NCBI GenBank assembly: GCA_050014195.1
Contig: JBEKDT010000013.1
Coordinates: 32,001-96,000 of the forward strand
Length of the DNA stretch: 64,000 nt
Origin: Desulfomonilia bacterium
Lineage (GTDB): Bacteria > Desulfobacterota > Desulfomonilia > UBA1062
Direction: 5' to 3'
A model generated the notes under the pieces. The model saw only the letters and a program-made list of their open reading frames with translations. It was not told where the DNA came from and did no database searches. This document shows positions 42,287 through 63,742 of the stretch, in pieces; the stretch's first letter is position 1, and every line of letters starts with the position of its first letter. Position numbers and translations under genes: made by a program.

Positions 42287-44860
42287 ATGAATGAGATAAA
42301 CAAGCATCACGAATCTGTCGAAAAAGAGCTTTTGAACAATCAAACTCCATTTTCCATAAAGAATCCAGGTTTAAAATTGTTATACTTTCTTTTGGCATTA
42401 TTACCGGTAATTCTTGTCTTTGCCATATATGCCAATACTTTTGAAGGTCCATATATATTTGATGATTTGCCGAATATCACAGGCAACTATCATATTCGCC
42501 TTACCCAGATATCCCTTAAAGGCCTTATGGATGCGGGGTTTAAAAGTATTGCTTCAAACAGGCCGATACCCAACATCAGTTTTGCCCTTAATTTCTATTT
42601 TCACCAATACCATGTTTTTGGTTATCACCTGGTTAACATTATTATTCATCTCTTAGCAGGACTTTCCCTTTTTTTAGTTTTAAGAGAAACTTTAAGGATC
42701 AGCCTGAAAATACAGGCAGGCTCTTTTCCAGAATCAATAAAACCATCACTGCTGGCTTACATCGTAACAATTGTCTGGCTCGTTCACCCACTCCATACGC
42801 AGTCCATCACATATATTGTTCAAAGAATGAACAGCATGGCTTCTATGTTCTATGTATTGTCATTGTGGTTTTATATCAAAGGCCGCCTCACAAGCGGCAA
42901 TCGGAGATGGGGTTTCTTTGCAGGCTGTCTGATATCCGGGCTTCTTGCGTTTGGCTCTAAGGAGATGACTGCAACACTACCTATCTTTATATTTCTTTAT
43001 GAATGGTATTTCTTCCAGGATCTTGACAAGTCATGGATTACAAAAAAGATATTACCGGTCACATTCGTCTTGGTTTTATTATCATTGCTTACATTATTAT
43101 TTCATCCGCTGCTAGGTATTTTAGGAGGTTATAGTTTCAGGCCATTCACTCTTACGCAGAGATTATTTACCGAGTTGCGCGTAGTAATGCTCTACATCAG
43201 CCTAATCTTTTTCCCTCATCCGATGCGGCTTAATCTTGACTATGATTTTCCACTTTCCCTTTCTTTAGTAAATCCTGTTACCACGCTTTTCTCGTTTGTC
43301 TTTTTATTTTGTATTTTTGTTGCGGCAATTGTGTTGGCAAAGAAGGAAAGGTTGATTTCATTTTGCATACTTTGGTTTCTTGGTAACCTTGTTATAGAAT
43401 CATCCGTAATACCACTTGAATTAGTATATGAACATAGAACATATTTGCCATCAATGTTTTTTGTACTTCTTATTATCGTGGTATTTTATCGTTTCATCCG
43501 TATGGCAAAAGTAAGGATAGGAATTATTTGCATAATTGTTGTCATTTTCTCTGTATGGACATATCAGCGAAATACGGTTTGGAGCGATGAAGGTGACTTG
43601 CTGCGAGACATCGTAATGAAATCACCCTATAAAGCAAGATGTTATAATAATCTCGCTGCATCTTATATAAAAAAGTCAGAATATGAAAAGGCCCTCGATC
43701 AGCTTTATAAGGCGTTAGAACTCCCTAATAATAACGATTGTTTAGACCTTGTTTATGAGAACATAGGGCTTAGTTATCTTAATATGAAACAGTATGAGAA
43801 AGCGATATATTATCTAAACAAATCGATAGGAACAGTTGGCTACGATGCAAGGTTCAACCGTGCTCGGACATTACTTGGACTAGCCCTTGAAAAAACAGGA
43901 AGGGTTTCTGAGGCCATCGTTCAATATAAGGAGGCTGTCAAGGAATACCCGACTTCCCATGAAGCACAAAACTTTCTTGGTAAATATCTGGCAAAAAATG
44001 GGATGATTGAGGAAGGCAAGACTCATATCTTAGAAGCCTTGAGATTAGACCCTGCCTACAATGAAGCATATAATAATATTGCCAATATTCTTATACAAGA
44101 GGGCAAAACCGATGAGGCAATCAATTATTACAAGGAAGCATTAGCACATAATCCTCTTTATGCAGATGCATACTATAATCTTGGTATTGTAATGGCGGAG
44201 CAAGGAAGGGATATCGAAGCAATAGACTATTTCACTCATGCTATTCAGATAAGTAGATCATATTTCCCGAGTGCACGGGAAAATCTGGCAGTGCTTTTTT
44301 ACAAGAGGGGAGAATTACAGAAGGCCATTGAACAGTGCCGGCAGTTACAGCTTGCCAACCTTGCTGATGCAAAAGTTAAACAGATTCTCGCTGTCGCTGT
44401 TGATCGTAAAAATAAGATAGATACAAATATTAGCAAAGTACGCAATGCTGTTGAACGTAGCGCACAAGATCCTAAGTTATACTATCAACTCGGTGACTTA
44501 TTAAGAATGGAAGGCAATTTTGACGATGCAATTAAAAGCTATGAAAAAGCAATCTCATTTATGCCTGGTTTCTCTCAAGCATACCAACAGATCGCTATAG
44601 TTTATTCACTGAAAGGAGATAATAACAGAGCCGGATCGTATTTTCGAAAAAGCGTTGATATAGATCCTAATAACCCGGATTCATATTATAATTTAGCATG
44701 TTTGTATGCAAAGATGAACAATGTTGAAGAATCCACACGATGGTTGAAGATTGCAGTAGAAAAGGGGTTTCACAACATTGACTTGTTGAAAACAGATAGA
44801 GATCTCACAAACATAAGAAATACCTCATACTATAAGGAACTGATTCAACGCGGTGGTTGA
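42287..44860 (+). CDS. TMTC-like GT-C glycosyltransferase with long TPR array
   Basis: YIFDD, NRP, HLVNIIIH, HPLHTQSITYIVQR, SKE, EHRTYLPS, RNTVWSD, then about 10 TPRs and YYNLAC..KGF..DRDL cap. Confidence 0.8.
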   Translation: MNEINKHHESVEKELLNNQTPFSIKNPGLKLLYFLLALLPVILVFAIYANTFEGPYIFDDLPNITGNYHIRLTQISLKGLMDAGFKSIASNRPIPNISFALNFYFHQYHVFGYHLVNIIIHLLAGLSLFLVLRETLRISLKIQAGSFPESIKPSLLAYIVTIVWLVHPLHTQSITYIVQRMNSMASMFYVLSLWFYIKGRLTSGNRRWGFFAGCLISGLLAFGSKEMTATLPIFIFLYEWYFFQDLDKSWITKKILPVTFVLVLLSLLTLLFHPLLGILGGYSFRPFTLTQRLFTELRVVMLYISLIFFPHPMRLNLDYDFPLSLSLVNPVTTLFSFVFLFCIFVAAIVLAKKERLISFCILWFLGNLVIESSVIPLELVYEHRTYLPSMFFVLLIIVVFYRFIRMAKVRIGIICIIVVIFSVWTYQRNTVWSDEGDLLRDIVMKSPYKARCYNNLAASYIKKSEYEKALDQLYKALELPNNNDCLDLVYENIGLSYLNMKQYEKAIYYLNKSIGTVGYDARFNRARTLLGLALEKTGRVSEAIVQYKEAVKEYPTSHEAQNFLGKYLAKNGMIEEGKTHILEALRLDPAYNEAYNNIANILIQEGKTDEAINYYKEALAHNPLYADAYYNLGIVMAEQGRDIEAIDYFTHAIQISRSYFPSARENLAVLFYKRGELQKAIEQCRQLQLANLADAKVKQILAVAVDRKNKIDTNISKVRNAVERSAQDPKLYYQLGDLLRMEGNFDDAIKSYEKAISFMPGFSQAYQQIAIVYSLKGDNNRAGSYFRKSVDIDPNNPDSYYNLACLYAKMNNVEESTRWLKIAVEKGFHNIDLLKTDRDLTNIRNTSYYKELIQRGG

Positions 44861-44909
44861 TAGAACATTTATAAAATGAGCAGGCATATTCTCCCTAGAT
44901 GATAACACT

Positions 44910-47090
44910 ATGACACAAGGTGATTTACCTTATAGTTATACGAGAGCATGGATCTGTCCTTTTCTCATAATACTTATTTTCATAACACTTGCAGTGAAAT
45001 ATGCAGAACCTCTCAAGGATGGGGACCTTTGGTTTCAAATGGCTTATGGCCAATATTTATTAGAGAACCATACATTAGTACCCGACCATACAATCTATAG
45101 CTGGACTCCAACAGATGGAAAACAGATATACTGTGCATGGATAGCAGAAATTTTATTTTATACTTTATACAAAATTGGTGGTTTAAACCTTCTCTTTGCT
45201 TTCAGATATATATGTTTATTGGTTTTTCTTGTTTTCGTTATTCTTCATGCCCAAAGATACAAGGTTGCCCAAAATCCTGTTACTTGGCTGATCTGCCTGA
45301 TAGGGTCATTTATGATTCAGGCTGGTGTTCAAATCAAACCCGAAATATTCTCTTTATTATTCATGACCTTCACAGTATGGACCTGGTGGTTCGTAAAGAT
45401 TTCTCCTGAAAAAGGGTGGATGCGATGTTATCTATTCCCAGCAATTGTATTGGTCTGGGTAAACACCCATGGTGGTGTGATATTCGGCATCGCATACCTG
45501 GGCCTGCTTTTCATCGGAGAAGTATTGAATGGTTTCATATCTCAAAAGGAGAAACTTACATCAAAGACAAGAAAGCATTTTTTCATATCAATGTCTCTGT
45601 GCGTTATTGCCGTATTTCTTACCCCCTATGGATGGAGATATCCATATGATATAATCCAGAATTTTATTATAAATAGTGAATCTCAAGTTAGAGATTTCAA
45701 GACAGTCTTGGCTTATCAGACAATTTTCTTTCAAGGGGCAAGATGGCAGCATTATTTAGAATACTTCATTCTAGGAAGTGCAATCCTGGGTATTCTTTTA
45801 TGGCCAAGCCTTAAAAAGGGAAAGCTTGATTGGCCATTGGTCCTGACAAATATTGGTTTCGGATTTCTTTATATGGAATTTGTCAGAACTACCTACTTCT
45901 GGGGAATAATTTTTATATTCAGTGCAATATATCTCATTCATGACGGGTTTGTATGGTGGAGCAGGAATAAAGTCTTTTCAAAATATGCCACGATCATCAG
46001 TATCATTTTGTGTATAATCCTTTCTGGAAGAGAGATGATAGAATCAATTTGTAAACCATTATTCGGATTCTGGATCAATTATAACAGCCCTATAGAGGAG
46101 GCTGAATATATACGGAAAAACTTTGAAGGTCATCATATAGGTAATGATTATGATACAGGTTCTTATTTATTATGGTCTCTTAAGCCAGAGAAAAAGGTAT
46201 TTATTGATGCCCGTTATTTTCCTTATAAACCATGGTATCATGAATATGCTGAGTTTGAGTATGGAAGAAGTAAGAAATATAAAGATCAATTTATCAACAA
46301 GTATCGATGTGATTTGTGGTGTGTAACATATGATTTCCCTCAACTTTCTTATTTTCTAAAATCACCGGATTGGAAGTTGGTGCATTACGGCCCCGCGGCT
46401 TGTATTTTTGTTCGCAAGGATATGAATATAACCCAAGATGGTTTTGATCTAAGCAAGATTTCTCATGATAATTTACAACCTCATCAAGCATATAAACTCA
46501 TACATTTCTCATTGCAGGTCGGTGAGATAGACACAGCAGTTGCAATAGCCCAAAAAATAAATACCAGCTATTTCTGTCCCCAAAAGGAGAAGCTTATTGC
46601 TTATGCTTATATAGAATTGGGAGAGGCATTTTCAAGGAAGGGCTCTGTTGATAGATCCATAGAATATTACTTAAAAGCCCTGCATATCGGGAAAATCAAT
46701 GATCCTGAAATTTATAACAGGTTAGGCGGGTTATATTGTAAAAAGCAGGAATTTATCAAAGCCATTGAACAATATAACAAAGCATTAGCATATAAAAAGG
46801 ATTATACCCCGGCACTCCATAACTTGTCTGTTGTCTATTCACAGATGGGTAAATTTAACTATGCACTCTATTACCTGCAAAGAATGATCGAGTTGCAACC
46901 CAATGATTCTGAAGCCTATTACAATGTTGCCTGCATATATTCCAGGCAGAAAAAGGTTGATGAAGCAATCGATTGGTTGAATAAAGCTATAGAGAGAGGA
47001 TTTAACAATTGGAATCTTATGAAGTCAGATAATGATTTGGCCAATATTAGGCAATCATTGTACTATCAAAATATTATAAAGAATCATTGA
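44910..47090 (+). CDS. Multi-TM GT-C-like membrane protein with TPRs (paralogue of 15532..17835)
   Basis: DGDLWFQMAYGQY, WVNTHGG, LTPYGW, VFIDARYFPY, CDLWC, TPRs and cap. Confidence 0.75.
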   Translation: MTQGDLPYSYTRAWICPFLIILIFITLAVKYAEPLKDGDLWFQMAYGQYLLENHTLVPDHTIYSWTPTDGKQIYCAWIAEILFYTLYKIGGLNLLFAFRYICLLVFLVFVILHAQRYKVAQNPVTWLICLIGSFMIQAGVQIKPEIFSLLFMTFTVWTWWFVKISPEKGWMRCYLFPAIVLVWVNTHGGVIFGIAYLGLLFIGEVLNGFISQKEKLTSKTRKHFFISMSLCVIAVFLTPYGWRYPYDIIQNFIINSESQVRDFKTVLAYQTIFFQGARWQHYLEYFILGSAILGILLWPSLKKGKLDWPLVLTNIGFGFLYMEFVRTTYFWGIIFIFSAIYLIHDGFVWWSRNKVFSKYATIISIILCIILSGREMIESICKPLFGFWINYNSPIEEAEYIRKNFEGHHIGNDYDTGSYLLWSLKPEKKVFIDARYFPYKPWYHEYAEFEYGRSKKYKDQFINKYRCDLWCVTYDFPQLSYFLKSPDWKLVHYGPAACIFVRKDMNITQDGFDLSKISHDNLQPHQAYKLIHFSLQVGEIDTAVAIAQKINTSYFCPQKEKLIAYAYIELGEAFSRKGSVDRSIEYYLKALHIGKINDPEIYNRLGGLYCKKQEFIKAIEQYNKALAYKKDYTPALHNLSVVYSQMGKFNYALYYLQRMIELQPNDSEAYYNVACIYSRQKKVDEAIDWLNKAIERGFNNWNLMKSDNDLANIRQSLYYQNIIKNH

Positions 47091-47108
47091 AAGATATAGG
47101 GGGATACA

Positions 47109-47858
47109 TTGTATCGCAATAAAAAAGTTATTGTCGTAATGCCGGCATATGAGGCAGAGGAGACTTTGAAGAGGACTTATGATGAGGTGATGGCGCAGGG
47201 GGTAGTGGACCTGGTGATCATAGTGGATGACAATAGCAAAGACCAAACTGTCGAGATTGCCAAATCCCTTGCCGACACCATGGTTCACAAGCATAATAAA
47301 AATTCCGGTTATGGCGGCAACCAAAAGACCTGTTATAAACTTGCACTTCAACAGGGTGGAGACATTGTTATTATGGTGCATCCCGACTATCAGTATACCC
47401 CCAAGCTCATACCCAGTATGGTTTCGATGATCGGTAGCGGCCTGTATCACTGTGTGCTCGGTTCGCGAATCCTTGGCGGATACGCTCTCAATGGTGGAAT
47501 GCCCTTGTGGAGGTATGTCTCAAACCGGTTTCTCACATTTGTTGAGAATATCCTTATGAATGCAAAACTCTCGGAGTATCATACCGGTTATCGGGCATTT
47601 TCACGAGAGTTGCTTGAAAGGGTTCCATTTCAGAAGAACTCCGACGACTTTGTATTTGATAACCAGATGCTCGCTCAAATTCTCTGGTTAGGCTATACTA
47701 TTGCAGAAGTAAGTTGTCCCACGAATTATTTTGAAGAAGCATCTTCCATTAATTTTATGAGAAGCATCAAGTACGGTTTCAGTTGCTTAAATACTGCACT
47801 TTCTTTCAGGCTTGCCAGAATGGGGCTTATCAAATCCGCTCTTTTTACTTCTGCTTAA
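47109..47858 (+). CDS. DPM1-like GT2 polyprenol-phosphate glycosyltransferase
   Basis: TTG start; VVMPAY, VDDNSKD, GYGGNQK, MVHPDYQY, VLGSR, HTGYRAFS, FVFD. Confidence 0.88.
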   Translation: MYRNKKVIVVMPAYEAEETLKRTYDEVMAQGVVDLVIIVDDNSKDQTVEIAKSLADTMVHKHNKNSGYGGNQKTCYKLALQQGGDIVIMVHPDYQYTPKLIPSMVSMIGSGLYHCVLGSRILGGYALNGGMPLWRYVSNRFLTFVENILMNAKLSEYHTGYRAFSRELLERVPFQKNSDDFVFDNQMLAQILWLGYTIAEVSCPTNYFEEASSINFMRSIKYGFSCLNTALSFRLARMGLIKSALFTSA

Positions 47859-47895
47859 TACTTTTTGCATTCAGAGTAGATTAAAGAGCGTACTC

Positions 47896-49779
47896 ATGAA
47901 TAAATATTGGATCAAGAGTATTATTGTCATAATCATCGCTGCATGTGTGTTTACAGCATATTGGCAAGTTAATGGATTTAATTTTGTTAACTTCGATGAT
48001 CCAGTGTACATAACTACAAACAAGGACATCAGACACGGGTTGACCCTCGATGGCCTTGAGTTTGCTTTCACCTGTGTTTATGCCTCCAACTGGCACCCCC
48101 TCACATGGATCTCCCATATGCTGGATGTTGAAATGTTCGGGCTTAATCCAGGCATGCATCACCTTACCAATGTGTTTCTTCACATCTTAAACAGCATTCT
48201 CTTGTTTCTTGTGTTCGAACGTATGACAGGTGCGATCTGGAGGAGCGCTGCAGTCGCAGCCCTGTTCGCGCTCCATCCTATCCATGTCGAGTCAGTAGCG
48301 TGGATATCTGAACGTAAGGATGTGCTGAGCACTTTCTTCTGGATGCTCACCATGTTGGCCTATCATTGGTATGTCATGAATAAAACAATCTCAAGATACC
48401 TTCTGGTAGCATTGCTCTTCGGGCTTGGACTTATGGCAAAACCCATGTTGGTAACGCTTCCCTTTGTACTGCTGCTCCTGGATTTCTGGCCGCTTAGGAG
48501 AAATGAACTCGCCTTTCGATTGATTGCGACCGATTCCAAGCATGAACAAAACATATGGTCTCATATAAACCTGCATGGAGCATTACCGTTGATTCTTGAG
48601 AAGATCCCTCTCATAATTATGGCCATCATAGCCGGCAGTGAGACTTTCTATGCACAGTGGGTAGGCGGGGCGGTAAATTCCTTAGGGCAAGTGCATTTAG
48701 CAATGAGGGTACAAAACGCCATTACCTCTTATGTGGCCTACCTCTGGAAAATGATATGGCCGATGCATTTGTCGGTTTTTTATCCATATCCGTGGCACTT
48801 CAACATCGCTGTCGTGGCTTCATGCCTTATATTCCTCACCGTAGTAACCTTTACTGTTCTTATTGTTGGAAAGAAAATGCCCTATCTTGCAACAGGCTGG
48901 CTTTGGTATCTGGGTACACTGGTGCCTGTTATCGGCATCATAAAGGTCGGCTCTCAGGCGATGGCTGACCGATATACCTATATCCCGCTCATTGGAATAT
49001 TTGTCATGGTTGTTTGGGGTTTAAGAGACATATTCTATAGATGGAGTTATGGTAAAGTTGCCCTTGGATCGCTGGCATTGATTATCCTGGCGTTGCTCAC
49101 TTGGGCAACATCAATCCAGGTGGCTACCTGGAAGAACAGTGAAATTCTGTTCAGTCATGCCCTGGCTGTAACCGGAGACAACTACTTAGCCCATGATAAT
49201 CTTGGGGTGGCTCTTTTTGATAGGGGTGATGTGGATGGTGCTATCAAACATTATAGGGAATCCATCAGGCTCAGAAAAAATTACGTGAATGCACAATGCA
49301 ACCTGGGGGTGGCACTGGCGAAGAAGAAGCAGTATGCCGAGGCATTTACCCACTATCGCGAATGCCTGAGGATCAAACCGGGATATTCAGAGGCATATTA
49401 CAACATGGGAGTAGCTCTTGCTGACCTTGGCAGGAAAGATGAAGCCGTCAAACAATACACAGAGGTCCTGAAGAACTATCCCCAGCATGAAAATGCCCAC
49501 AGAAATTTAGGCCTTCTGCTGGCTGAAAAGGGCAATTTTGATGAGGCAATAGCGCATTATTATAAGGCCCTTGATGCTAATCCTGACAACGTCGGGACAC
49601 GTATCAACCTTGCCGATTCACTATTGAAGCAGGGCAATATTGAAAGAGCACTGATTCAAATTGAAGAGGCTCTCAAAATCGATCCCAAAAACCTGAACCT
49701 GCATACAAAGTTCGAAGAGATTCAAATGAAGAAAAGAGGCTCTTGCACGACCTACAAAAATTTGCCGCCACCCAAGTGA
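47896..49779 (+). CDS. TMTC-like GT-C glycosyltransferase with TPRs
   Basis: Likely start 47896 (ORF track 47812). FVNFDD, WHPLTWISH, HPIHVESVAWISERKD, AKPM, EKIP, ADRYTYIP, WKNS, about 5 TPRs. Confidence 0.82.
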   Translation: MNKYWIKSIIVIIIAACVFTAYWQVNGFNFVNFDDPVYITTNKDIRHGLTLDGLEFAFTCVYASNWHPLTWISHMLDVEMFGLNPGMHHLTNVFLHILNSILLFLVFERMTGAIWRSAAVAALFALHPIHVESVAWISERKDVLSTFFWMLTMLAYHWYVMNKTISRYLLVALLFGLGLMAKPMLVTLPFVLLLLDFWPLRRNELAFRLIATDSKHEQNIWSHINLHGALPLILEKIPLIIMAIIAGSETFYAQWVGGAVNSLGQVHLAMRVQNAITSYVAYLWKMIWPMHLSVFYPYPWHFNIAVVASCLIFLTVVTFTVLIVGKKMPYLATGWLWYLGTLVPVIGIIKVGSQAMADRYTYIPLIGIFVMVVWGLRDIFYRWSYGKVALGSLALIILALLTWATSIQVATWKNSEILFSHALAVTGDNYLAHDNLGVALFDRGDVDGAIKHYRESIRLRKNYVNAQCNLGVALAKKKQYAEAFTHYRECLRIKPGYSEAYYNMGVALADLGRKDEAVKQYTEVLKNYPQHENAHRNLGLLLAEKGNFDEAIAHYYKALDANPDNVGTRINLADSLLKQGNIERALIQIEEALKIDPKNLNLHTKFEEIQMKKRGSCTTYKNLPPPK

Positions 49780-49801
49780 GTTGGAATTTACGGTTCATCA
49801 C

Positions 49802-54801: not shown

Positions 54802-54895
54802 GCCGAGTAAACATACTCATGGTAGGTAATAAGCTCACACGCCGATACACTTCTGAGCATTTATATAAATTTTTTTAAGGGAAAAGAACTGATAG

Positions 54896-56911
54896 ATGAA
54901 CTTACTTCATAGCCTTAAGGACAGGAATGTTCCGGCATCAGTCATACCAATCTTGATTGTTCTGCTCATTATTGTCAGCATCCTATTCGTATATGCACAG
55001 GTCGGAAGCCATGAATTTATTAATTTTGATGATCAATTGTATGTAACGGACAATCCTATAGTAAAAGCCGGTGTTACTTGGAATGGTATTAAATGGGCAT
55101 TCAGTTTTTCTGATAGAACATATTGGCATCCGCTCACATGGCTTTCCCATATGGTGGACTGTGAGTTGTTCGGCCTTAACCCTGGAAAGCATCATCTCGT
55201 GAATGTTTTCTTGCATATCATCAACAGTATTTTGTTGTTTTTGGTTTTTATGATGATGACAGGAACTCTTTGGAGGAGTGCTTTTGTAGCTTTTTTATTT
55301 GCTTTGCATCCTATCAATGTAGATTCTGTGGCTTGGATTGCCGAAAGAAAAAATCTATTAAGCACATTATTCTGCATGTTAACCATAATGGCATATATCT
55401 ATTACTCACGCAGACCTTCTTTTTATAAATATATTCTCATTCTATTTGTTTTCACGCTTGGACTTCTTTCAAAACCCATGCTTATCTCTATTCCTTTTGT
55501 TCTCATATTACTTGATTTTTGGCCGCTTAAAAGAATTAATTTTGATTCTTTGTTGACCAGAGAACAAATATCAATAGGAATCAGCAATGGAAGACGAGCC
55601 CAAAGAACACAAGCGCTCAAATTGATAATTGAAAAAATTCCACTTCTCATTCTATCTCTTGTAATTATCGGTACATCTATCATCTCATTTCAGCACCATA
55701 GTGATGTTATTTCATCAAACTTAATAAGTACAAAGTTACGTGTGGCTAATGCCATGGTTTCTTATGTTAACTATATGGGTAAACTGATTTGGCCGAGAAA
55801 CTTGACAATATACTATCCATATCCAGCCAGTCTGCCCATGTGGGAAGTGATTGGAGCCAGTGTTTTTATTTGTACTGTGACTATTCTGGCGGGCCTTTAT
55901 GCAAAAAAATTACCATACCTAATCGTTGGGTGGCTCTGGTACCTAGGAACTTTGGTGCCTGTGAGTGGGTTGATCCAGGTGGGGCTCTGGCCTGCCATGG
56001 CTGAGCGATGGGTTTACATCCCTGCAATTGGATTATTTATGCTGGTAGCATGGTTGATTCCCGACTTGGTTTCAGAGTTCAGGTTTAAAAAACTTGTCTT
56101 GAGTACACTGGCTGTTATGGTGATCTGTATACTAATGATCTTAACATGGAGGCAAACCGGATATTGGAAAAATGATTTTATATTGTTTTCCCATGCACTA
56201 CAGGTCAATGAAAGAAACAGTATTGCATACAGTAATTTGGGCGATTATTACTTAAATATCAATAGGCCTGGAGAAGCGATAGAATATTACGATAAATCTA
56301 TAAAAATAAATCCATATGACCCTCTCGTTCAGAACAACTTTGCAATAGCCTTGCTCAAAGAAGGGCGTTATGAAGAATCTATTAAATACTTTAAAAAAGC
56401 TATCTTGAGTTATCCCAGAGATCCGCAATTATATAGTGGTCTCGGGATTGCATCTGCTCATCAGAATAGAAATACAGAGGCAATAGAATATTTTTCGAAA
56501 TCCTTAGATATTGACCCCGGCAATGCTGAAGTACATTTTGAGCTTGCTTATATTCTCAGTGAAGAGAGAAGATTTGATGAAGCCATAATTAATTTTAAAA
56601 AAGTCCTTTCTATAAATTCTTCTCATGTTGGATCATTGTTTGGGCTATCAGCCGCATATAGCCAAAAAAAGGACTATAATGCATCGATGACTTTATTAAA
56701 GAAACTTCTTGATATTCAACCTGATAACCCCAATGTTTATTATAACATAGCCTGTATCTATGCTAAACAGAACAAGGCAGATGAATCTGTTAGTTGGTTG
56801 AATAAAGCTGTTCAGAAGGGATTCAACAAATGGAACCTTATGAAATCGGATAGTGATCTGGATAATATTCGGGGGAACAGGGAATATTTTGATATTATTA
56901 AGGGAAAATGA
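54896..56911 (+). CDS. TMTC-like GT-C glycosyltransferase with TPRs
   Basis: FINFDD, WHPLTWLSH, HPINVDSVAWIAERK, SKPM, AERWVYIP, TPRs and YYNIAC..KGF..DSDL cap. Paralogue of 47896..49779. Confidence 0.82.
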   Translation: MNLLHSLKDRNVPASVIPILIVLLIIVSILFVYAQVGSHEFINFDDQLYVTDNPIVKAGVTWNGIKWAFSFSDRTYWHPLTWLSHMVDCELFGLNPGKHHLVNVFLHIINSILLFLVFMMMTGTLWRSAFVAFLFALHPINVDSVAWIAERKNLLSTLFCMLTIMAYIYYSRRPSFYKYILILFVFTLGLLSKPMLISIPFVLILLDFWPLKRINFDSLLTREQISIGISNGRRAQRTQALKLIIEKIPLLILSLVIIGTSIISFQHHSDVISSNLISTKLRVANAMVSYVNYMGKLIWPRNLTIYYPYPASLPMWEVIGASVFICTVTILAGLYAKKLPYLIVGWLWYLGTLVPVSGLIQVGLWPAMAERWVYIPAIGLFMLVAWLIPDLVSEFRFKKLVLSTLAVMVICILMILTWRQTGYWKNDFILFSHALQVNERNSIAYSNLGDYYLNINRPGEAIEYYDKSIKINPYDPLVQNNFAIALLKEGRYEESIKYFKKAILSYPRDPQLYSGLGIASAHQNRNTEAIEYFSKSLDIDPGNAEVHFELAYILSEERRFDEAIINFKKVLSINSSHVGSLFGLSAAYSQKKDYNASMTLLKKLLDIQPDNPNVYYNIACIYAKQNKADESVSWLNKAVQKGFNKWNLMKSDSDLDNIRGNREYFDIIKGK

Positions 56912-57111: not shown

Positions 57112-57210
57112 TAAGCAGAGAATAATTTTCTTATTGATGTTCTATTAAAAGGTTTGAATGGAATTAACCGATTAGAAGGATGAGAGCCATTTAAAACTGC
57201 AGGTGGAATA

Positions 57211-58158
57211 ATGAATGTCACAATAGTCGTACCTGTCTACAACAGCAGTACCATACTTCCCGATCTCGTAGTACGGCTGAATCCTGTCCTAGCAGCCAAC
57301 TATGAAACATATGAGCTTATTCTTGTGAATGATGGGAGTAGGGATGAAAGCTGGAATGTTATATGCTCTTTGGTTTCCCAGCATTCTTGGATCCGGGGAG
57401 TAAATCTCATGAGGAACTATGGACAGCACAATGCTATTCTCTGCGGCATCCGTTTGGCTCAATTTGAAGCCATCGTGACCATGGATGATGACCTTCAGCA
57501 TCCGCCCGAAGAGATTCCTCGGCTCACAAATAAGCTGAGCGAAGGATATGATGTCGTTTACGGAACGCCCATAGAACAGAAGCATGGATTATGGAGGGAC
57601 ATGGCCTCCATCATCACGAAGGCATCACTGCAAGCCGCTATCGGGGCTGAAACGGCAAGAATGGTAAGCGCGTTCAGGGTATTTCGAACACAAGTCAGAA
57701 AAGCCTTTGAAGATTATCGTGGGTCTTTTGTTTCATTGGATGTTTTGCTCACCTGGGGCACGACGCACTTTACTGCTGTTCCGGTCAGACATGACCAAAG
57801 AAAGAAGGGGATCTCAAACTATACTATCTGGAAATTGATTAACCATGCCGTGAACATGATGACCGGATTCAGCCCTGTGCCGCTTCAGCTTGCAAGCATT
57901 ATAGGGTTCCTGTTCACAATCTTTGGATTTGTAATACTCGTATATGTAGTAGGGAATTATTTTATTCATGGAGGCAGTGTACCGGGATTCTCCTTCCTGG
58001 CATGCATGATAGCCATATTCTCCGGGGTTCAGCTCCTGATGCTTGGCATCTTCGGCGAGTACCTTGCCCGTGTCCATTTCCGCACCATGGATCGGCCCAG
58101 CAGCATCATCCGAGAAATCAGAGAGCCGCGATCTAACGTTGAAGAAGACCGTATATGA
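57211..58158 (+). CDS. ArnC/GtrB-like undecaprenyl-phosphate glycosyltransferase
   Basis: VVPVYN, VNDGSRD, RNYGQHNA, TMDDDLQHPPEEI, two C-terminal TMs, GEYLAR. Confidence 0.9.
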   Translation: MNVTIVVPVYNSSTILPDLVVRLNPVLAANYETYELILVNDGSRDESWNVICSLVSQHSWIRGVNLMRNYGQHNAILCGIRLAQFEAIVTMDDDLQHPPEEIPRLTNKLSEGYDVVYGTPIEQKHGLWRDMASIITKASLQAAIGAETARMVSAFRVFRTQVRKAFEDYRGSFVSLDVLLTWGTTHFTAVPVRHDQRKKGISNYTIWKLINHAVNMMTGFSPVPLQLASIIGFLFTIFGFVILVYVVGNYFIHGGSVPGFSFLACMIAIFSGVQLLMLGIFGEYLARVHFRTMDRPSSIIREIREPRSNVEEDRI

Positions 58159-58925
58159 GTAAAGAACAAAACCCGATCTCGCTCTCAGTCCTTGATGAAG
58201 AACGTTTCGGTATAAGGATTGCTAAGGCTCCACTGGTGAAGATCGAGGCCATCCCCCATATGCTGGATTTTTGCAAAGCGAATCAGGTGGAACTCCTTAT
58301 TTCCCGCTGCTCCACAGAAGACCTGAAAGCAGCCCAGGAAATGGAGAGATTAGGTTTCTCTCTCATGGACACGCTCATATATTTTATCCGCGACCTTAAT
58401 ATAAAACCGATTTCCAATGAAGATCCAGAAGTTCATGTGAGGAATTTTGAACAGGGTGAAGAACATTCAGTCAAGTCCATAGCCAGAGAATCCTTCCATG
58501 GCTATCTCAGCCATTATCATGCAGACAGCAGGCTCGATAAAAAGAAATGTGATGAAGTCTATACTGACTGGGCTTACAGGTCTTGTGTCTCTACAATGGT
58601 AGCCGATCAAGTACTTGTTGCAGAGAAAAATGGAGAGATAATCGGTTTTGGAACCATGCGTATGAACAACGCGATAGAAGGGGAAGGCCTTCTCTTCGGG
58701 GTTGTCCCTTCATTACAGAGGCAAGGTGTTTATCGGTCAATTATAGTGAAATGCTTGCAATGGTGTACTGTAAGAAAACTTCATGTCATGACTATCTCAA
58801 CACAGATCACTAATTTGGCTAGTCAGAAGGTATGGATCCGCCTTGGATTCGAGCCGAACCATTCATACTATACTTTTCACAAGTGGTTTTCTGAGCTTGA
58901 AAACAGAGACTTTAAGAGGTCATGA
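58155..58925 (+). CDS. GNAT N-acetyltransferase, WecD/RffC-like (dTDP-4-amino-sugar acetylase)
   Basis: SHYHADSRL..Y.DW, GV.PSLQRQG, STQITN; adjacent to wecE. Confidence 0.75.
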   Translation: MSKEQNPISLSVLDEERFGIRIAKAPLVKIEAIPHMLDFCKANQVELLISRCSTEDLKAAQEMERLGFSLMDTLIYFIRDLNIKPISNEDPEVHVRNFEQGEEHSVKSIARESFHGYLSHYHADSRLDKKKCDEVYTDWAYRSCVSTMVADQVLVAEKNGEIIGFGTMRMNNAIEGEGLLFGVVPSLQRQGVYRSIIVKCLQWCTVRKLHVMTISTQITNLASQKVWIRLGFEPNHSYYTFHKWFSELENRDFKRS

Positions 58926-59803
58926 GAGTCTGTACCTTCTGTGGGCAGCGATTTGCATCGAATGACTGGCAGTGCCCCCGGTGTGGATGGGCACCTTTAA
59001 TTCGCAAGGGGTTCATTTCTTTTCTTAATGAAGATCCACTATCCGGAGAGTCCTTTGATTCAGAATATTTTGCCAGGTTACACCATCTAGAAAAGGAAAA
59101 TTTCTGGTTTCAGCACCGCACAAGGCTCATTATCAGGGCTATCGAGGAGTACTTCCCCTATAGTAAGAAAATTCTTGAGATCGGATGTGGTACAGGTCTT
59201 GTCCTCTCCGAGGTCGGACGAAGTTTCTCGGATGTGTCCCTGTCAGGAAGCGATTTATTTGTGGAAGGGCTCCATTTTGCTAAGTCAAGGATGCCGGATG
59301 CTGCCTTCTACCAGATGGATGCTTGCTGCATGCCCTTTGAAGATGAATTTGACCTTATCTTGGCACTGGATGTACTCGAACATATTGAAGACGATTCCAG
59401 GGCGATAAATGAGTTATGCAGATCGCTTAAATATGGTGGAGGGTTGATCATAACTGTTCCCCAGCACCAGTGGCTCTGGTCGATTCAGGATGAGAAGGCT
59501 TATCATAAAAGAAGATATGCCAGGAAAGAGTTAATGGATAAGTTGGTAAAAAACGGATTCCAGGTTATTTATGCAACTTCCTTTATTACACTATTGCTTC
59601 CAGTATTGGTCTTTTCAAGGATTTATGGCAGGATTATTACAAGAACCCAGTATGAGTATGACCCAATGAGGGAATTAAAGATTGCTTATTCACTCAATAG
59701 GATTCTTTGTATCATATCCAAGACTGAAGAACTTTTATTGAGAGCTGGTATTTCTTTTCCTGCTGGGGGGTCGCTGCTCTGCATTGGGAGAAAAGGACGT
59801 TGA
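58922..59803 (+). CDS. Class I SAM methyltransferase with N-terminal zinc-ribbon
   Basis: CTFC..CPRC, NFWF..R, LEIGCGTG, LDVLEHIEDD, TVP..WS..D...H.RRY. Confidence 0.88.
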   Translation: MRVCTFCGQRFASNDWQCPRCGWAPLIRKGFISFLNEDPLSGESFDSEYFARLHHLEKENFWFQHRTRLIIRAIEEYFPYSKKILEIGCGTGLVLSEVGRSFSDVSLSGSDLFVEGLHFAKSRMPDAAFYQMDACCMPFEDEFDLILALDVLEHIEDDSRAINELCRSLKYGGGLIITVPQHQWLWSIQDEKAYHKRRYARKELMDKLVKNGFQVIYATSFITLLLPVLVFSRIYGRIITRTQYEYDPMRELKIAYSLNRILCIISKTEELLLRAGISFPAGGSLLCIGRKGR

Positions 59804-59804
59804 T

Positions 59805-60953
59805 ATGGGAGATGAAAGGATAAGGATACCGTTTAACAAACCCTTCATTGCAGGCAAGGAGCTCTACAACATCGCCCAGGCAGTGCTCAAGGGACACCTT
59901 GCCGGAGATGGGCACTTTACAAAACTCTGTCATACTTGGCTAGAAGAAAAGCTTGGCACAAGGAAAGCCCTGCTTACCCATTCTTGTACAGCAGCCCTTG
60001 AGATGTGCGCGATCCTGTGTGACATCACCCCGGGTGATGAGATCATAGTGCCATCATTCACTTTTGTTTCAACGGTCAATGCCTTTGTGCTCAGGGGAGG
60101 TGTACCGGTATTCGTAGATATAAGGTCCGATACCCTGAACATAGATGAAAAGAGGATTGATGACGCAATCACCAGGAAAACCAAGGTGATCGTTCCTGTA
60201 CATTACGCAGGTGTCCCTTGTGCCATGGATGAGATAATGCGCCTGGCCGAAAAACATAATCTGCTCGTTGTGGAAGATGCTGCACAGGCCCTGCTTTCTA
60301 CCTACAAGGGAAAGTGTCTGGGTGCAATAGGGCATTTGGGTGCATTGAGTTTTCACGAAACAAAGAACATTATCAGCGGAGAGGGTGGGGCGCTGCTGGT
60401 GAACGATGATCGATTCATAAAACGTTCTGAGATCATCAGGGAAAAAGGCACTGACAGGGCACAGTTTTTCAGGGGGGAGATCGACAAATACAGTTGGGTG
60501 GACATTGGCTCCTCATATCTTCCCAGTGAACTTATTGGCGCATTCCTCTATGCACAGATGGAACAGGCTGAGCAAATTATAGCCAAACGCCGAGGTATTT
60601 TCGATCTGTATTATTCTTTGCTAAGACCCCTTGAAGAGAAGGAACTTATCCGACTTCCATATATAACAACCAGTGATTGCTCATGTAACGGGCACATATT
60701 CTATATCATCATGAATTCTCTTGGAGACCGCACTAAACTTATAAAATATTTGAAGAAGAATGACATATTATCAGTCTTTCACTATGTGCCCTTACATTCA
60801 TCTCCTGCCGGAATTAAATATGGCAGAATTGCTGGGAGTATGGATGTTACGAATGACATCAGCGAAAGATTGCTCAGGTTGCCAATTTATTATGAGATGG
60901 AAGATGTTGATGTCATATATGTTGTTGATAGGGTTAAGAACTTTTTTAGCTGA
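59805..60953 (+). CDS. rffA: dTDP-4-amino-4,6-dideoxygalactose transaminase (WecE/RffA)
   Basis: IPFNKP, GDGHFT, SCTAALEM, PSFTFVST, VHYAG, EDAAQ, SFHETKN, GSSYLPSE, VFHYVPLH. Start 59805 (ORF track 59784). Confidence 0.92.
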   Translation: MGDERIRIPFNKPFIAGKELYNIAQAVLKGHLAGDGHFTKLCHTWLEEKLGTRKALLTHSCTAALEMCAILCDITPGDEIIVPSFTFVSTVNAFVLRGGVPVFVDIRSDTLNIDEKRIDDAITRKTKVIVPVHYAGVPCAMDEIMRLAEKHNLLVVEDAAQALLSTYKGKCLGAIGHLGALSFHETKNIISGEGGALLVNDDRFIKRSEIIREKGTDRAQFFRGEIDKYSWVDIGSSYLPSELIGAFLYAQMEQAEQIIAKRRGIFDLYYSLLRPLEEKELIRLPYITTSDCSCNGHIFYIIMNSLGDRTKLIKYLKKNDILSVFHYVPLHSSPAGIKYGRIAGSMDVTNDISERLLRLPIYYEMEDVDVIYVVDRVKNFFS

Positions 60954-60979
60954 ATGGTCAAATTTTAATAGAATATATA

Positions 60980-63742
60980 ATGGTGGGATCACCAAGTACT
61001 AGTATTAGTGAGAAGAATTTATGTTATGAGGGGATATGCTTGGACAATAGCCATAGTAGCAAAGAAATGAATAATTCTAATTCTATCTTACCCAAGCCCT
61101 TCATTTTCTATTTCATTATCATTATTCTTCCTTTTCTAATGTTTTTTTGGATGATACCTTTTATTGGCAACATTACTTTAGGTAATGATTATACTCTTTA
61201 CCCAACTGCACATCAAATGGAGCTTATGTTCTCCATAAAGACTGGATCTTTTCCTCTTTACATTCCTGGCTTCGCAGGTGGTCAATCTTCTTCAGCACTA
61301 ACTCTAGGGCAAATATTTCATCCCATATCCTGGATCTCTGCGCATATGCCTGGATATTGGGATGGGAAAGCCTTGGAATGGAATACTCTTTTCCGATTGC
61401 TCTCTCTCGGTTTAACCCAATTATTGTTATTTGAATTTTTACGGAGATTGAAATTTAATAACCTTGTCTCTTTTTTACTTTCCTTTGTGACAGTTTATAA
61501 TCTTCGAATGCTCGATTTATTTCGTTATGGAGCATCACTTGAAAGTTGGACAGGGCATCTGCTTCTTTGTACTGCAATCGGATTATATTATCTTAACCAG
61601 AAGGGCGGTTGGAAAGAACCTTTATTTATCATCGGATCAACGTACTGGCTTGTCTGTAGTGGTCATCCACAAATGATGTATTACGGTTTGCTCGGTGCCG
61701 GTCTTTTTGCTTTAATAATACCATATTTTGTGTCGATTTTCTTGCCGGAAAAAGGTGTTGAGATAAAAAATCTGATCAGATTTTGGGGGAAGACGGCCCT
61801 TTTTTGTTGTGCAGGGATTGTACTATCATCTGCATACATAGTTCCCTTTTATTTTGACTTTATGACAACTTCAGCAAGGATTGGAAAGAGTTATGAATGG
61901 GCCAATATGTATTATACTGACACATTTATAGGAACAATAAACAATTTTTTCCAGCCCCTCAGGACTACAGTGGACGGGAATTTCGGTGGAACATCATTAT
62001 TCATCATTCCTGCACTAATACCTTTATTATTATTTCTTCGTGTAAGAGTTCCACGTGTCATTTGGGCAACATGGATATTAGTCCTTTTTGCATTTTTACA
62101 TATGCAGGGTGATAGAACACCGGTTCATTATATTGTTTGGAAATGCTTGCCCTTAGCTTCTTCATTTAGGGTTGCAGGTAGGATCGCAATGATCATCCCT
62201 ATATTGTTAATGTTAATGCTTGCTTGGTTATTTCGATCAAATTCTCCTGCATCAACATCAATAAATAAAAAATTAAAAGTTAATCCTGTAATGATCTTAG
62301 CTTGCATAGGTATGCTATTAATCACAGTGTACAACTTAATCCCAAACTCTATTACTTCGAATACACATGAGTTCTGTCCGGCAAATATACATCTAATTCC
62401 AAACAGTATAATGATACTTTACATTATATTGGGGATGCTTGCTCTCCTAACATTTTGTATACATAATATCTTTAGTAACAAAAAATACATTACAGAATTT
62501 ATATTGTGCATAATTACTTGCATACAGGTTATGATACTTTTGGGATGTGGTACATGGATGGAATACAAGAAGGATACTCCCAATTTCCAGTCGATGACCT
62601 TTCAAAAAATTAAGGGGCTTGATTACCAAGGTAAAACAGGGGTGGGATTAAATCAAGCCATCATTATGAAGCAAGTAGAACGATCATATCTGGAACCCTT
62701 TCTTGGGAAGTTTTATTCTCAGCATATTAATGCTCAAAGCAATGAAGATGCCTATTCAATAATGGAAAGAGGTCGTACTCCAGATCAAGTTGTTTTAGAA
62801 GGATATAACCCTAAGAATAATAAACTAGAAAATAGGCAATTAGCTGAGAAAACTTCAGGCCATGTGAAATTGATTTATAGTTCTTTTAACCGGTTGATCT
62901 TTGAAGTCTCTTCCTTAAAACCTGGCTTTTTAGGCCTTTCCTACCCATACAATGGGCATTGGAGAGCAATACTTAAGAAGCAGTATGTTCCAGTTTATAG
63001 GGCTAATGGTGCTTCACATGCTGTATATGTACCTGCTGGTACCAATCTTGTTGAATTCAGATATTGGAGCACTGCTGCTTTTGTTGGAATAGTTTTAAGC
63101 TGTTCTATGATTATCATTATTGGATTTATTTTCATGCATAGATTTTCAACAAAAAATGTAGGATATGTATTCACAATTTTATCCCTTATTTTTAGTATAA
63201 GTATTTTTATTATTTGGTATTATAGCTTGTATACAGGCAAAAACCTTAATACGGTTTATACATGGGAATCTTCTCCTGAAACTTATAATAATCTTGCTTA
63301 TAGTAAGAGGACTGAAATGTCGTCTTCAACACTAATACCTGATTCTTTACTCAATGATCCAGGTACAGCTTATCTAAAACAATATCCATATCTGTATACT
63401 AGTGGCAAAGCTGTCGATGGTGATCGATCTCCAAAATCTGGTTTTATTACAGCTTTAGTAAACCAACCATGGTGGAGGGTAGATCTAAATCGTGTAGAGA
63501 ATATTGGTTCTATCGTTATTTATGAATCTCTTATAGGCGATAACTGGAATGTACGTCCGTTGATGTTGGCATATTCAAATGATAAAATCACATGGGGAGT
63601 AATGAAATTTTCTAATTCTGGGCCAAAAATTTGGCTTCATTTTAATAAACCTATAACTGCTCGATATGTTGAGATAATGTCTTCTGGATATTGTAAGCTC
63701 TCCTTTGATGAAGTAGAGATTTATCCCCTAATTGAAAGATAA
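60980..63742 (+). CDS. YfhO-like GT-C membrane protein with C-terminal discoidin (F5/8 type C)-like domain
   Basis: Multi-TM with GND, SGHPQ; YfhO-like YNGHWRA..VYRAN..AVYVPAGTNLVEFRY; C-terminal KAVDGD..PWWRVDL..ARYV..EVEIY. Start uncertain (possibly 61067). Confidence 0.72.
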   Translation: MVGSPSTSISEKNLCYEGICLDNSHSSKEMNNSNSILPKPFIFYFIIIILPFLMFFWMIPFIGNITLGNDYTLYPTAHQMELMFSIKTGSFPLYIPGFAGGQSSSALTLGQIFHPISWISAHMPGYWDGKALEWNTLFRLLSLGLTQLLLFEFLRRLKFNNLVSFLLSFVTVYNLRMLDLFRYGASLESWTGHLLLCTAIGLYYLNQKGGWKEPLFIIGSTYWLVCSGHPQMMYYGLLGAGLFALIIPYFVSIFLPEKGVEIKNLIRFWGKTALFCCAGIVLSSAYIVPFYFDFMTTSARIGKSYEWANMYYTDTFIGTINNFFQPLRTTVDGNFGGTSLFIIPALIPLLLFLRVRVPRVIWATWILVLFAFLHMQGDRTPVHYIVWKCLPLASSFRVAGRIAMIIPILLMLMLAWLFRSNSPASTSINKKLKVNPVMILACIGMLLITVYNLIPNSITSNTHEFCPANIHLIPNSIMILYIILGMLALLTFCIHNIFSNKKYITEFILCIITCIQVMILLGCGTWMEYKKDTPNFQSMTFQKIKGLDYQGKTGVGLNQAIIMKQVERSYLEPFLGKFYSQHINAQSNEDAYSIMERGRTPDQVVLEGYNPKNNKLENRQLAEKTSGHVKLIYSSFNRLIFEVSSLKPGFLGLSYPYNGHWRAILKKQYVPVYRANGASHAVYVPAGTNLVEFRYWSTAAFVGIVLSCSMIIIIGFIFMHRFSTKNVGYVFTILSLIFSISIFIIWYYSLYTGKNLNTVYTWESSPETYNNLAYSKRTEMSSSTLIPDSLLNDPGTAYLKQYPYLYTSGKAVDGDRSPKSGFITALVNQPWWRVDLNRVENIGSIVIYESLIGDNWNVRPLMLAYSNDKITWGVMKFSNSGPKIWLHFNKPITARYVEIMSSGYCKLSFDEVEIYPLIER

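Follow-up and report, generated by a model that had tools for sequence, protein, structure and literature searches.

A dense locus of putative polyprenyl-phosphate-sugar synthases and GT-C-type transferases, several with tetratricopeptide repeats, in a Desulfomonilia genome

The DNA analyzed here, called the window below, is a stretch of 64,000 nucleotides from the 4.2-Mb genome of a Desulfomonilia bacterium, an environmental relative of sulfate reducers (assembly GCA_050014195.1; positions 32,001 to 96,000 of contig JBEKDT010000013.1, abbreviated C13), and plain coordinates refer to it. The region studied (42287..63742) comprises 14 open reading frames (ORFs), O1 to O14. They encode membrane proteins of the glycosyltransferase (GT) fold class GT-C, several of them with tetratricopeptide repeat (TPR) arrays, as well as GT2-family enzymes expected to load single sugars on polyprenyl phosphate (loaders), and proteins of sugar nucleotide synthesis. 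An earlier note, written from the sequence alone, had read the region as a modular TMTC-like glycosylation system, and all 14 ORFs that it listed were found at the coordinates given. Nearly all of its gene calls hold. Those for gmd, WecE, the UPF0104 protein, the GT2 domains, the methyltransferase-GT2 fusion and the TPR arrays score above curated cut-offs; those for fcl, the ArnC-like O10, the WecD-like acetyltransferase and the DPM1-like O3 and O8 stand at the family level only. Parts of the kind that a polyprenyl-phosphate-sugar-dependent periplasmic glycosylation system has are present in the locus.

Three of the membrane proteins are paralogs: O1 (42287..44860, + strand), which carries a long TPR array, O4 (47893..49779, +, in an ORF open from 47812) and O9 (54896..56911, +). 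They align along their entire N-terminal domains. O4 is 47% identical to the N-terminal domain of O9, and O1 matches O9 in pairwise BLASTP at 22% identity over 425 columns (E 5e-12), a comparison relied on because the hhalign match of O1 to alignment A2 and its match in the paralog search are partly circular (A2 contains O1). Matches to TPR_1, TPR_2 and TPR_8 are far above cut-offs in all three. The membrane domains of O1, O2, O9 and O14 match no Pfam or NCBIfam model, and that of O4 gives a marginal PMT_2 match (26.9 bits, cut-off 26.1) and a weak Wzy_C_2 match below the cut-off (23.5 bits). Sequence searches of the PDB with the O4 and O1 membrane domains returned nothing relevant; PDB profile searches with alignments A3 and A2 returned only TPR proteins, since the rows were full-length, and were uninformative on the membrane domains.

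Residues 1-445 of O9, modelled with 41 homologues, gave a predicted local distance difference test score (pLDDT) of 80.7 and a predicted template-modelling score (pTM) of 0.86. Among 48161 representative PDB chains (VIA), the best 20 matches to this model are all GT-C enzymes, with Z from 18.3 to 9.6 (AglB 18.3, Pmt1/2 18.2, Pmt4 17.8, ArnT 17.3, STT3B 16.8, EmbA 9.6), and the first unrelated match is a designed repeat protein at Z 5.7. Foldseek found GT-C matches too, with modest E-values (best PglB, 4e-4). The GT-C fold that had been proposed for the membrane domains is thus borne out in the predicted structures of O9 and O2, and its extension to O4 and O1 rests on their sequence kinship to O9.

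The three paralogs have in common an FDD motif, HLxNxxxH, HPxxxxSxxxIxxR, a lysine before the next helix, and (E/D)RxxY. Across 42 aligned sequences D45 and D46 of the FDD motif are invariant, and the lysine before transmembrane helix 7 (TM7) and the arginine of (E/D)RxxY are invariant or nearly so. The DD motif named in the earlier note is therefore present in O1, O4 and O9, as FDD. Its HPxHxExV..R is literal in O4 only, O9 having HPINVDSV..R and O1 HPLHTQSI..R, and its ERxxYxPS occurs not literally but in the variant forms ERWVYIPA, DRYTYIPL and EHRTYLPS. Because two transmembrane helices separate the (E/D)RxxY loop from the repeats, the TPR array would lie on the periplasmic, active-site side, as in TMTC.

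The family is widespread. A search with the O9 domain found at least 7967 significant proteins (8000 candidates scored), one with the O1 domain 3493, and a genome scan at least 659 O9-class loci, in Thermodesulfobacteriota, Planctomycetota, Verrucomicrobiota, Nitrospinota, Acidobacteriota and other phyla. The closest named relatives among the matches listed come from metagenome-assembled genomes of Desulfomonilia and Thermodesulfobacteriota, and some family members are named 'protein O-mannosyl-transferase' by JGI or NCBI. Ten membrane-domain paralogs occur in the genome: O1, O4, O9 and a fourth just beyond the window (C13:98111-100099) belong to this locus, and six are scattered beside housekeeping genes. 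No GT2 or sugar gene was seen among 41 ORFs scanned around these six (of 78 of at least 100 amino acids within 9 kb, mostly the nearest), and a BLAST comparison of all ORFs of the six loci with the cluster proteins gave one weak methyltransferase match only.

The layout of O1, O4 and O9 recalls TMTC1-4 (CAZy family GT105), the cadherin O-mannosyltransferases of the endoplasmic reticulum, which likewise have an N-terminal GT-C domain followed by a TPR array, a DD in the first loop, two transmembrane helices after the (E/D)RxxY loop and several paralogs per genome. The TMTC architecture (GT-C plus TPR, DD motif) was confirmed for all three, but membership in the family was not recovered and is unproven. 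The Pfam model TMTC_DUF1736 (PF08409), which stands for the segment specific to TMTC between TM7 and TM8, has no match at E≤1 in their N-terminal domains, none in the whole genome at E≤10 (14 candidates scored), and is absent among the Pfam matches listed for 240 homologues. O1, O4 and O9 are accordingly TMTC-like in architecture, a likeness of domain order and of motifs compared by eye. Set against motifs M2, M4, M5 and M7, taken from the accessible text of PMC7801869, O1 appears the most TMTC-like paralog, with FDD, SNRPIPNISFALN (M2-like), KEMTAT (M4), LDYDF (its LDY being M5-like) and EHRTYLPS, M7 being shifted. In O4 and O9 the lysine and (E/D)RxxY are retained, but YYPYP replaces the 'DW' of M5, whose aspartate is thereby missing. 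The proteins here also differ from TMTC in being bacterial and periplasmic, and their donors are probably not mannose. The accessible text of PMC7801869 reports essentially full-length TMTC homologues in many uncharacterised prokaryotes, for example a Deltaproteobacteria protein found through human TMTC3 (24% identity, E 3e-47), so the existence of a bacterial TMTC homologue family is already in print.

O2 (44910..47090, +) combines a GT-C membrane domain with a periplasmic alpha/beta domain and TPR. The earlier note had listed it as GT-C-TPR; it is not TMTC-like, and its fold is nearest to STT3, AglB and PglB. Its model (pLDDT 92.6, pTM 0.93) was compared with the PDB representatives (VIA), and the best 20 matches are all GT-C, with human STT3B first (Z 19.1, 468 residues aligned, residues 7-504). 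Taken separately, residues 389-503, which form the soluble domain, resemble the C-terminal domains of AglB-S2 (Z 6.9, root-mean-square deviation 2.8), PglB (5.2) and P. furiosus STT3 (5.0). The best eight Foldseek matches are all STT3 or AglB (E 1.2e-6 to 2.7e-5), and Pmt4 appears only at E 0.45. As modelled, O2 is oligosaccharyltransferase (OST)-like in fold, and the resemblance includes the extramembrane C-terminal domain. Unlike STT3, AglB and PglB, it has a TPR tail, matches no Pfam family at E≤1, STT3 included, and contains no literal WWDYG, the defining OST motif; its conserved stretch is NDYxxGxYLxW (NDYDTGSYLLW in O2 itself). Its gene neighbors point to a monosaccharide linked to lipid by a single phosphate, whereas an OST takes a pyrophosphate-linked oligosaccharide. 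O2 was also considered as a relative of the O9 family and rejected, as hhalign aligned only the TPR/C-terminal tail and the membrane domains are not detectably related at the profile level. The first 550 residues of O2 retrieved 8257 representatives at E≤1e-3 and 293 at E≤1e-30, and Atlas returned only 'hypothetical protein' clusters, with a Dpy19 lead at 0.92. The genome has only two O2-class genes, O2 and a gene for a 793-amino-acid protein with GT-C and TPR (15454..17835, +), which aligns with the O2 family by hhalign at probability 100 and 43% identity over 410 columns.

The ends of these proteins deserve a separate remark. A C-terminal module of about 55 residues, YYN.AC.Y...W...A..KGF..W.L.K.D.DL.N.R....Y, ends five of the seven membrane-plus-TPR proteins despite their differing membrane-domain families. 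It lies at 44651-44860 in O1, 46881-47090 in O2, 56702-56911 in O9, about 17630-17835 in the 793-amino-acid protein, and at L001:5100-5309 past the window; O4 is without it. Its sole match is to PF22316, below threshold (20-22 bits against 27), and the tail is kept across both family profiles.

Five GT2 genes are candidate loaders. O3 (47109..47858, +; PF00535 81.8 bits) is a soluble DPM1/AglJ-type enzyme with no predicted transmembrane segment, and O8 (53350..54801, +; Methyltransf_31/25 and PF00535, AglJ 107 bits) is a methyltransferase fused to a GT2 of the same type. The best models for both are AglJ, dolichyl-phosphate-hexose transferase and PpgS (61, 51 and 44 bits for O3). O10 (57211..58158, +) is of ArnC/GtrB/PgfS type (ArnC 181.8 bits against a cut-off of 529, PgfS 150.9) and, like a GT2 past the end of the window, has two C-terminal hydrophobic segments in the manner of GtrB and ArnC; a transmembrane scan found none in O3 and O8. 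The fifth loader (40849..41802, −), divergent from O1 and outside the range of the earlier note, has three such segments and scores 76 bits with AglJ, 63 with PpgS and 47 with PgfS. All five rank polyprenyl-phosphate or dolichyl-phosphate sugar synthase models first, and every score is below the equivalog cut-off. When four other GT2 genes of the window were scored as a control, three ranked EpsE, EpsD or rhamnosyltransferase models first. The fourth was the gene at 40849-41802, which we assign to the system because the AglJ and PpgS models rank first; its relatives adjoin TPR-bearing GT-C genes in loci L029 and L082.

Genes for two sugar pathways accompany the loaders. Ahead of O8 lie gmd (GDP-mannose 4,6-dehydratase; 51203..52321, +; TIGR01472 584 bits, cut-off 415) and fcl (GDP-L-fucose synthase; 52396..53343, +; NF047922 488.7 bits, cut-off 500), the latter ending 6 bp before O8. 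O10 is followed, with operon-like overlaps of 4, 4 and 20 bp, by O11 (58155..58925, +), a weakly WecD-like GNAT N-acetyltransferase (NF008212 67 bits, cut-off 219), O12 (58922..59803, +), a class I methyltransferase (Methyltransf_11 60 bits), and O13 (59784..60953, +), a WecE-type dTDP-4-amino-4,6-dideoxyhexose transaminase (NF008687 597 bits, cut-off 375; TIGR02379 583, cut-off 435). The N-terminal CxxC..CxxC motif of O12 is zinc-ribbon-like, one hydrophobic segment lies near residues 213-231, and relatives of O12 occur with WecE beside O2-class genes in 5 of 72 loci. Upstream of the locus are rmlA (37687..38574, −; TIGR01207 484 bits, cut-off 361), rmlC and rmlD; rmlB is on another contig (C3:178580-179542; TIGR01181 466 bits, cut-off 365). 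RmlA would supply dTDP-glucose for the WecE branch. Elsewhere, at G000:C4:181191-183255, a DegT-family aminotransferase gene lies beside an ArnC-like GT2 gene (33% identical to O10) and may be the organism's own Arn-type pair. O5 (49802..50908, −) is a UPF0104/LPG_synthase_TM protein, and its description as flippase-like was upheld above cut-offs (PF03706 154 bits; TIGR00374 'flippase-like domain' 89 bits against 43). Relatives of O5 adjoin O2-class genes in L140, L143, L144 and genome G209, and O5 is possibly the flippase of the lipid-linked sugar.

The last ORF of the region, O14 (60980..63742, +), ends in an F5/8 type C (discoidin) domain (PF22633/PF00754, residues 806-899) and has no TPR. 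Its description as YfhO-like found no support from Pfam YfhO (PF09586; no match at E≤0.01) but is favored by structure. Its Atlas model matches YfhO clusters with template-modelling scores of 0.64-0.73 over residues 35-727, and 33% of its own Atlas cluster carry PF09586; the next clusters by features combine an AftD-type GT-C with F5/8 domains. In the accessible text of PMC11127046, F5/8-type domains bind carbohydrate in other GT-C enzymes, and those GT-C enzymes that carry carbohydrate-binding modules have glycans as acceptors. For O14, a glycan acceptor is the more likely guess.

The locus does not stop at O14. The 5' part of a methyltransferase gene (63805..64000, +; identified from L001 ORFs and Pfam matches) begins a fourth unit, which continues past the window with a GtrB/PgfS-type GT2 (PgfS model 295 bits) and a 753-amino-acid TPR-bearing GT-C protein. 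The locus thus spans 40.8-63.7 kb and runs on to about 68.3 kb, with an outlier at 15.5-17.8 kb, and contains five loaders and eight GT-C genes of three GT-C families. About 28 kb of the 4.2-Mb genome holds 4 of the 10 TPR-bearing GT-C paralogs, one of the two O2-class genes and 5 of about 9 polyprenyl-phosphate-type GT2 genes, and such clustering is far from random.

The gene neighborhoods in other genomes were compared for both classes. Among 75 O9-class loci from other genomes (4 kb flanks), 28 have at least two tandem TPR-bearing GT-C genes, counted from the listing, and 11 have a polyprenyl-phosphate-type GT2, seven of these being an O8-type fusion (55-65% identity). Within the phylum, 34 of 301 genomes sampled carry that fusion. 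Where O8-like genes from other genomes were examined (29 loci, 1.5 kb flanks), a TPR-bearing GT-C gene is adjacent in seven and fcl in three, one of these in a distant genome. In a genome of the same genus (L113/L114, G209:C15), gmd, fcl, O8 and an O10 ortholog follow one another, with O9 and O11-O14 absent, and an O3 ortholog (79% identity) is followed by two O4-like TPR-bearing GT-C genes. Modules are shuffled even within the genus, and the gmd-fcl-fusion-O9 group did not hold as a fixed unit.

For the O2 class, 77 metagenome loci less 5 own or near-identical ones left 72. A polyprenyl-phosphate-type GT2 lies within 10 kb in 32 of them (GtrB/ArnC type in 24, DPM/AglJ type in 9), WecE at 45% identity or more in 13, rmlA in 6, an O1/O4/O9-class gene in 17, UPF0104 in 3 and a GNAT gene in 2. 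None has a YfhO-like gene. Locus L140 has the order O10-O11-O12-O13-O2 class-O5, an O2-class gene standing in the position that O14 holds here, and in L197 an O2-class gene (about 30% identical) is followed by RmlA, RmlB, one other gene and a GtrB-type GT2, both Rml proteins scoring above cut-offs. Elsewhere, then, WecE and the ArnC-like GT2 travel with the O2 class and not with O14, and the pairing of WecE and ArnC-like genes with O14 proposed for the third module has no counterpart in these loci. Because WecE, RmlA/RmlB and GtrB/ArnC-type GT2 genes recur beside the O2 class, a lipid-linked sugar made from a dTDP-6-deoxyhexose is the best-supported donor that can be proposed for these enzymes.

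The second O2-class gene ends a string of genes resembling a Fil/Fap fiber system (7485..15304, +; Pfam, NCBIfam). The string encodes two FilA-like DUF6160 proteins, a FilB C39 peptidase, FilC, a FadL-like outer membrane protein and a PD40 protein. NCBIfam scores are 212 bits for FilB, 153 for FilC, and 35 and 22 for the FilA-like proteins, all below cut-offs; FilB is also FapD-like and FilC also FapF-like. The FilA-like proteins are rich in glycine, threonine and serine and have a common N-terminus, MTP(V/I)xDxxLSNVTGQAGVSI. The order FilB-FilC-FadL is kept in all 11 other genomes examined. Of the 301 genomes sampled, 12 carry FilC and 11 an O2-class gene, and both are present in four other genomes. 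A check of 12 unannotated neighbors for secreted partners found no PEP-CTERM, and the Fil-like names emerged instead. The FilA-like fiber subunits are candidate protein acceptors. Two small ORFs after the fourth TPR-bearing GT-C gene (L001:5677-6601, C13:100677-101601) could be acceptors as well. They have lipoprotein-like signals by eye (..YAC, ..SGC), one being of 126 amino acids with a CarboxypepD_reg/SdrD-B-type beta-sandwich and the other of 152 with a TTTETTT stretch.

Between the fiber genes and O1 lies a Wzx-type polysaccharide cluster (17888-41802) with three Acyl_transf_3 genes, RgpF, TylF and CmcI O-methyltransferases, GT2 and GT4 genes, and rmlA, rmlC and rmlD; no Wzy, ligase or initiating transferase is among its Pfam matches. 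Since the related contigs L148 and L154 lack such a cluster, its 24 kb look as though they had been inserted here, separating the Fil genes from those for glycosylation. The start of the window (1-3045, −) is occupied by an open-ended ORF of over 1015 amino acids, made up nearly throughout of PAS domains (seven PAS_9 stretches), which probably encodes a sensor protein.

Several known systems offer comparison. The combination of loader, flippase and GT-C enzyme follows the logic of the known three-component systems (GtrA/GtrB/Gtr*, GT136, CsbB/YfhO), with which O10 and the downstream GT2 also share the two C-terminal transmembrane helices of GtrB and ArnC. The locus differs in having UPF0104 only, many loaders and GT-C genes in one place, and TPR on most of its GT-C proteins. 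In the streptococcal Pgf system, a GT2 (PgfS) and the YfhO-type PgfM1 glycosylate proteins, according to the accessible text of PMC12041528. The downstream GT2 (295 bits) and O10 (151 bits) resemble PgfS, and O14 resembles the YfhO-type PgfM1/PgtC2, but neither PgfS score reaches the 500-bit cut-off, and the organism here is a Gram-negative one with a different sugar and with a discoidin domain on O14. The locus also recalls the Arn pathway in bringing together genes for a DegT-family aminotransferase, an N-acyl transferase, an ArnC-type loader and a GT-C enzyme; the trio of aminotransferase, loader and GT-C recurs with the O2 class in other genomes. Unlike in that pathway, the sugar nucleotide would be based on dTDP-6-deoxyhexose (WecE, RmlA, RmlB), and the GT-C protein is not ArnT by sequence and has alpha/beta and TPR domains. 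Orthology to ArnC or ArnT was not found, O10 falling short of the ArnC cut-off and no GT-C protein of the locus matching an ArnT or PMT model apart from the marginal PMT_2 match of O4.

The nearest parallel in a bacterium is TfpW of Pseudomonas aeruginosa, a GT-C enzyme with a periplasmic TPR that glycosylates pilin (10.1101/2020.04.19.049825, accessible text). It has 11 transmembrane helices, a C-terminal periplasmic TPR domain, a DDx motif and a polyprenyl-phosphate-monosaccharide donor, and it acts on a fiber subunit encoded beside it; the likeness is one of architecture as described. The TfpW donor is arabinose made through DprE1/E2 (pilin D-arabinofuranosylation), and the fiber that it modifies is built of type IV pilin, not of a Fil/Fap-like subunit. 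A literature search, supplements lying outside it, found no characterised bacterial TMTC-like enzyme besides TfpW, an analogue by architecture, nothing on a polyprenyl-phosphate-linked Fuc4N or viosamine donor, and nothing useful on Fil systems.

On the gene content, the predicted GT-C folds of O9 and O2 and the recurrent neighborhoods, all of which are direct results, a working scheme can be built in which donors, flipping and acceptors are the steps that we infer. Five GT2 polyprenyl-phosphate-sugar synthases would load single sugars on polyprenyl phosphate in the cytoplasm. One sugar would derive from GDP-fucose, as gmd and fcl stand beside the fusion O8; another would be a dTDP-4-amino- or 4-acetamido-4,6-dideoxyhexose, given WecE, the GNAT protein and the methyltransferase beside O10, RmlA upstream and RmlB elsewhere. 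The lipid-linked sugars would be flipped, possibly by O5, and used by eight GT-C-fold transferases of three unrelated families, among them four of TMTC architecture, two OST-like (O2 and its paralog) and one YfhO-like with a discoidin domain. Loaders and transferases would be mixed between genomes, with no fixed one-to-one modules. Our best guess is that at least the TPR-bearing enzymes would act on secreted proteins, for which the FilA-like fiber subunits are candidates. That the region is a toolbox of lipid-linked sugars and GT-C enzymes is very probable; that it serves glycosylation on the periplasmic face of the inner membrane with proteins as acceptors, taken as a whole statement, we hold at about even chances, and the same goes for the narrower claim that at least some TPR-bearing enzymes act on proteins.

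A protein acceptor is favored by six of the ten paralogs standing alone, with no sugar genes in the scanned flanks and with varied TPR arrays. It is also favored by the contiguity of the Fil system with glycosylation genes in L148 and L154, by TPR-bearing GT-C genes in the fetched flanks of four of 11 Fil loci in other genomes (G209, G082, G180, G040), and by the precedents of TfpW and of PgfS with PgfM1. Other observations weigh against it, or against the scheme around it. The remaining seven Fil loci have no TPR-bearing GT-C gene nearby. No loader lies within 4 kb in 64 of the 75 O9-class loci, and the relatives compared are not independent, so that neighborhood counts overstate the support. 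The loader scores stay below equivalog cut-offs, and the sugar specificities are therefore guesses. No GtrA, SMR or MATE flippase was seen among the ORFs scanned, which leaves the UPF0104 protein O5 as the only candidate. Machinery for polysaccharide export has TPR domains too.

The GT-C enzymes may instead decorate only glycans or lipids, adding either side-branch sugars, as Gtr-type enzymes do, to the polysaccharide or LPS that the adjoining cluster would make, or an amino sugar to lipid A or core in an Arn-like way, with the TPR and discoidin domains binding the polymer or the export machinery. This alternative, which we consider possible though rather unlikely, would suit the adjoining Wzx-type cluster at 17.9-41.8 kb with its rmlA, rmlC and rmlD, GT2/GT4 and O-methyltransferase genes, and the carbohydrate-binding-type domain of O14, given the action of comparable enzymes on glycans (PMC11127046, accessible text). 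The set of O2 class, WecE, GtrB/ArnC-type GT2 and RmlA/RmlB mirrors ArnB, ArnC and ArnT of lipid A modification, and the GNAT gene is rare beside O2-class genes, so the sugar may often stay cationic. In L148 and L154, however, the glycosylation genes are directly contiguous with the Fil system and no polysaccharide cluster intervenes, six of ten paralogs are scattered beside housekeeping genes, and a single polymer would hardly call for ten paralogs that differ in their TPR arrays. TMTC, TMEM260 and TfpW, the nearest enzymes of this architecture to have been characterised, all act on proteins, as far as the accessible texts describe them.

The gene order within the window, the shared GT-C and TPR architecture with its DD motif, and the full-length prokaryotic TMTC homologues in print (PMC7801869, accessible text) would also fit the stricter model of the earlier note. 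There, three self-contained modules, each with its own sugar, loader and GT-C enzyme, would O-glycosylate folded periplasmic proteins chosen by TPR, as TMTC1-4 do with cadherins. We regard this as improbable. With at least five loaders and at least eight GT-C genes, three closed modules do not describe the locus: the fifth loader, the fourth GT2/GT-C pair and the second O2-class gene lie outside them. In other genomes WecE and ArnC-like genes keep company with the O2 class and in none of the 72 loci with O14, the same-genus genome has no O9 between its O8 and O10 genes, PF08409 is undetected and O14 has no TPR. It is more improbable still, to the point of being nearly negligible, that the TPR membrane proteins are inactive as transferases and serve as scaffolds, as polymerase- or ligase-like proteins, or persist as degenerate paralogs. 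The missing 'DW' metal-motif aspartate of O4 and O9 and the sub-threshold Wzy_C_2 match of O4 would agree with such a role. Against it, the aspartate pair of the first loop, the lysine ahead of TM7 and the arginine of (E/D)RxxY are invariant or nearly so throughout the alignment, every ORF is intact, and the family is very large and conserved.

A bolder and rather doubtful proposal can be made for the O2 class. It would be a TPR-armed OST-fold enzyme that puts a polyprenyl-phosphate-linked 4-amino- or 4-acetamido-4,6-dideoxyhexose (made by RmlA, RmlB and WecE and loaded by a GtrB/ArnC-type enzyme) on Fil/Fap-like subunits before secretion, with the TMTC-architecture paralogs adding other sugars to other secreted proteins. 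This would be a bacterial counterpart of the client-specific O-glycosylation of TMTC and TMEM260.

What the locus contributes is the density and diversity of the parts in one place, the evidence that modules are interchangeable, an unnamed OST-fold family with TPR that is linked across distant metagenomes to dTDP-sugar and GtrB-type genes, and a named candidate protein acceptor. No description of this family, of its dTDP-sugar/GtrB link or of FilA-like proteins as acceptors was found in the literature, supplements again lying outside the search. Bacterial full-length TMTC relatives are very numerous and uncharacterised, and the targets of such enzymes become testable at this locus. The handles are candidate donors derived from GDP-fucose and from dTDP-4-amino-4,6-dideoxyhexose, five candidate GT2 loaders and the FilA-like proteins as candidate acceptors. 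Should the acceptors turn out to be glycans or lipid A, the O2 class would represent a new route of envelope remodelling akin to the Arn pathway. If they are proteins, client-specific O-glycosylation by GT-C enzymes with TPR would predate eukaryotes.

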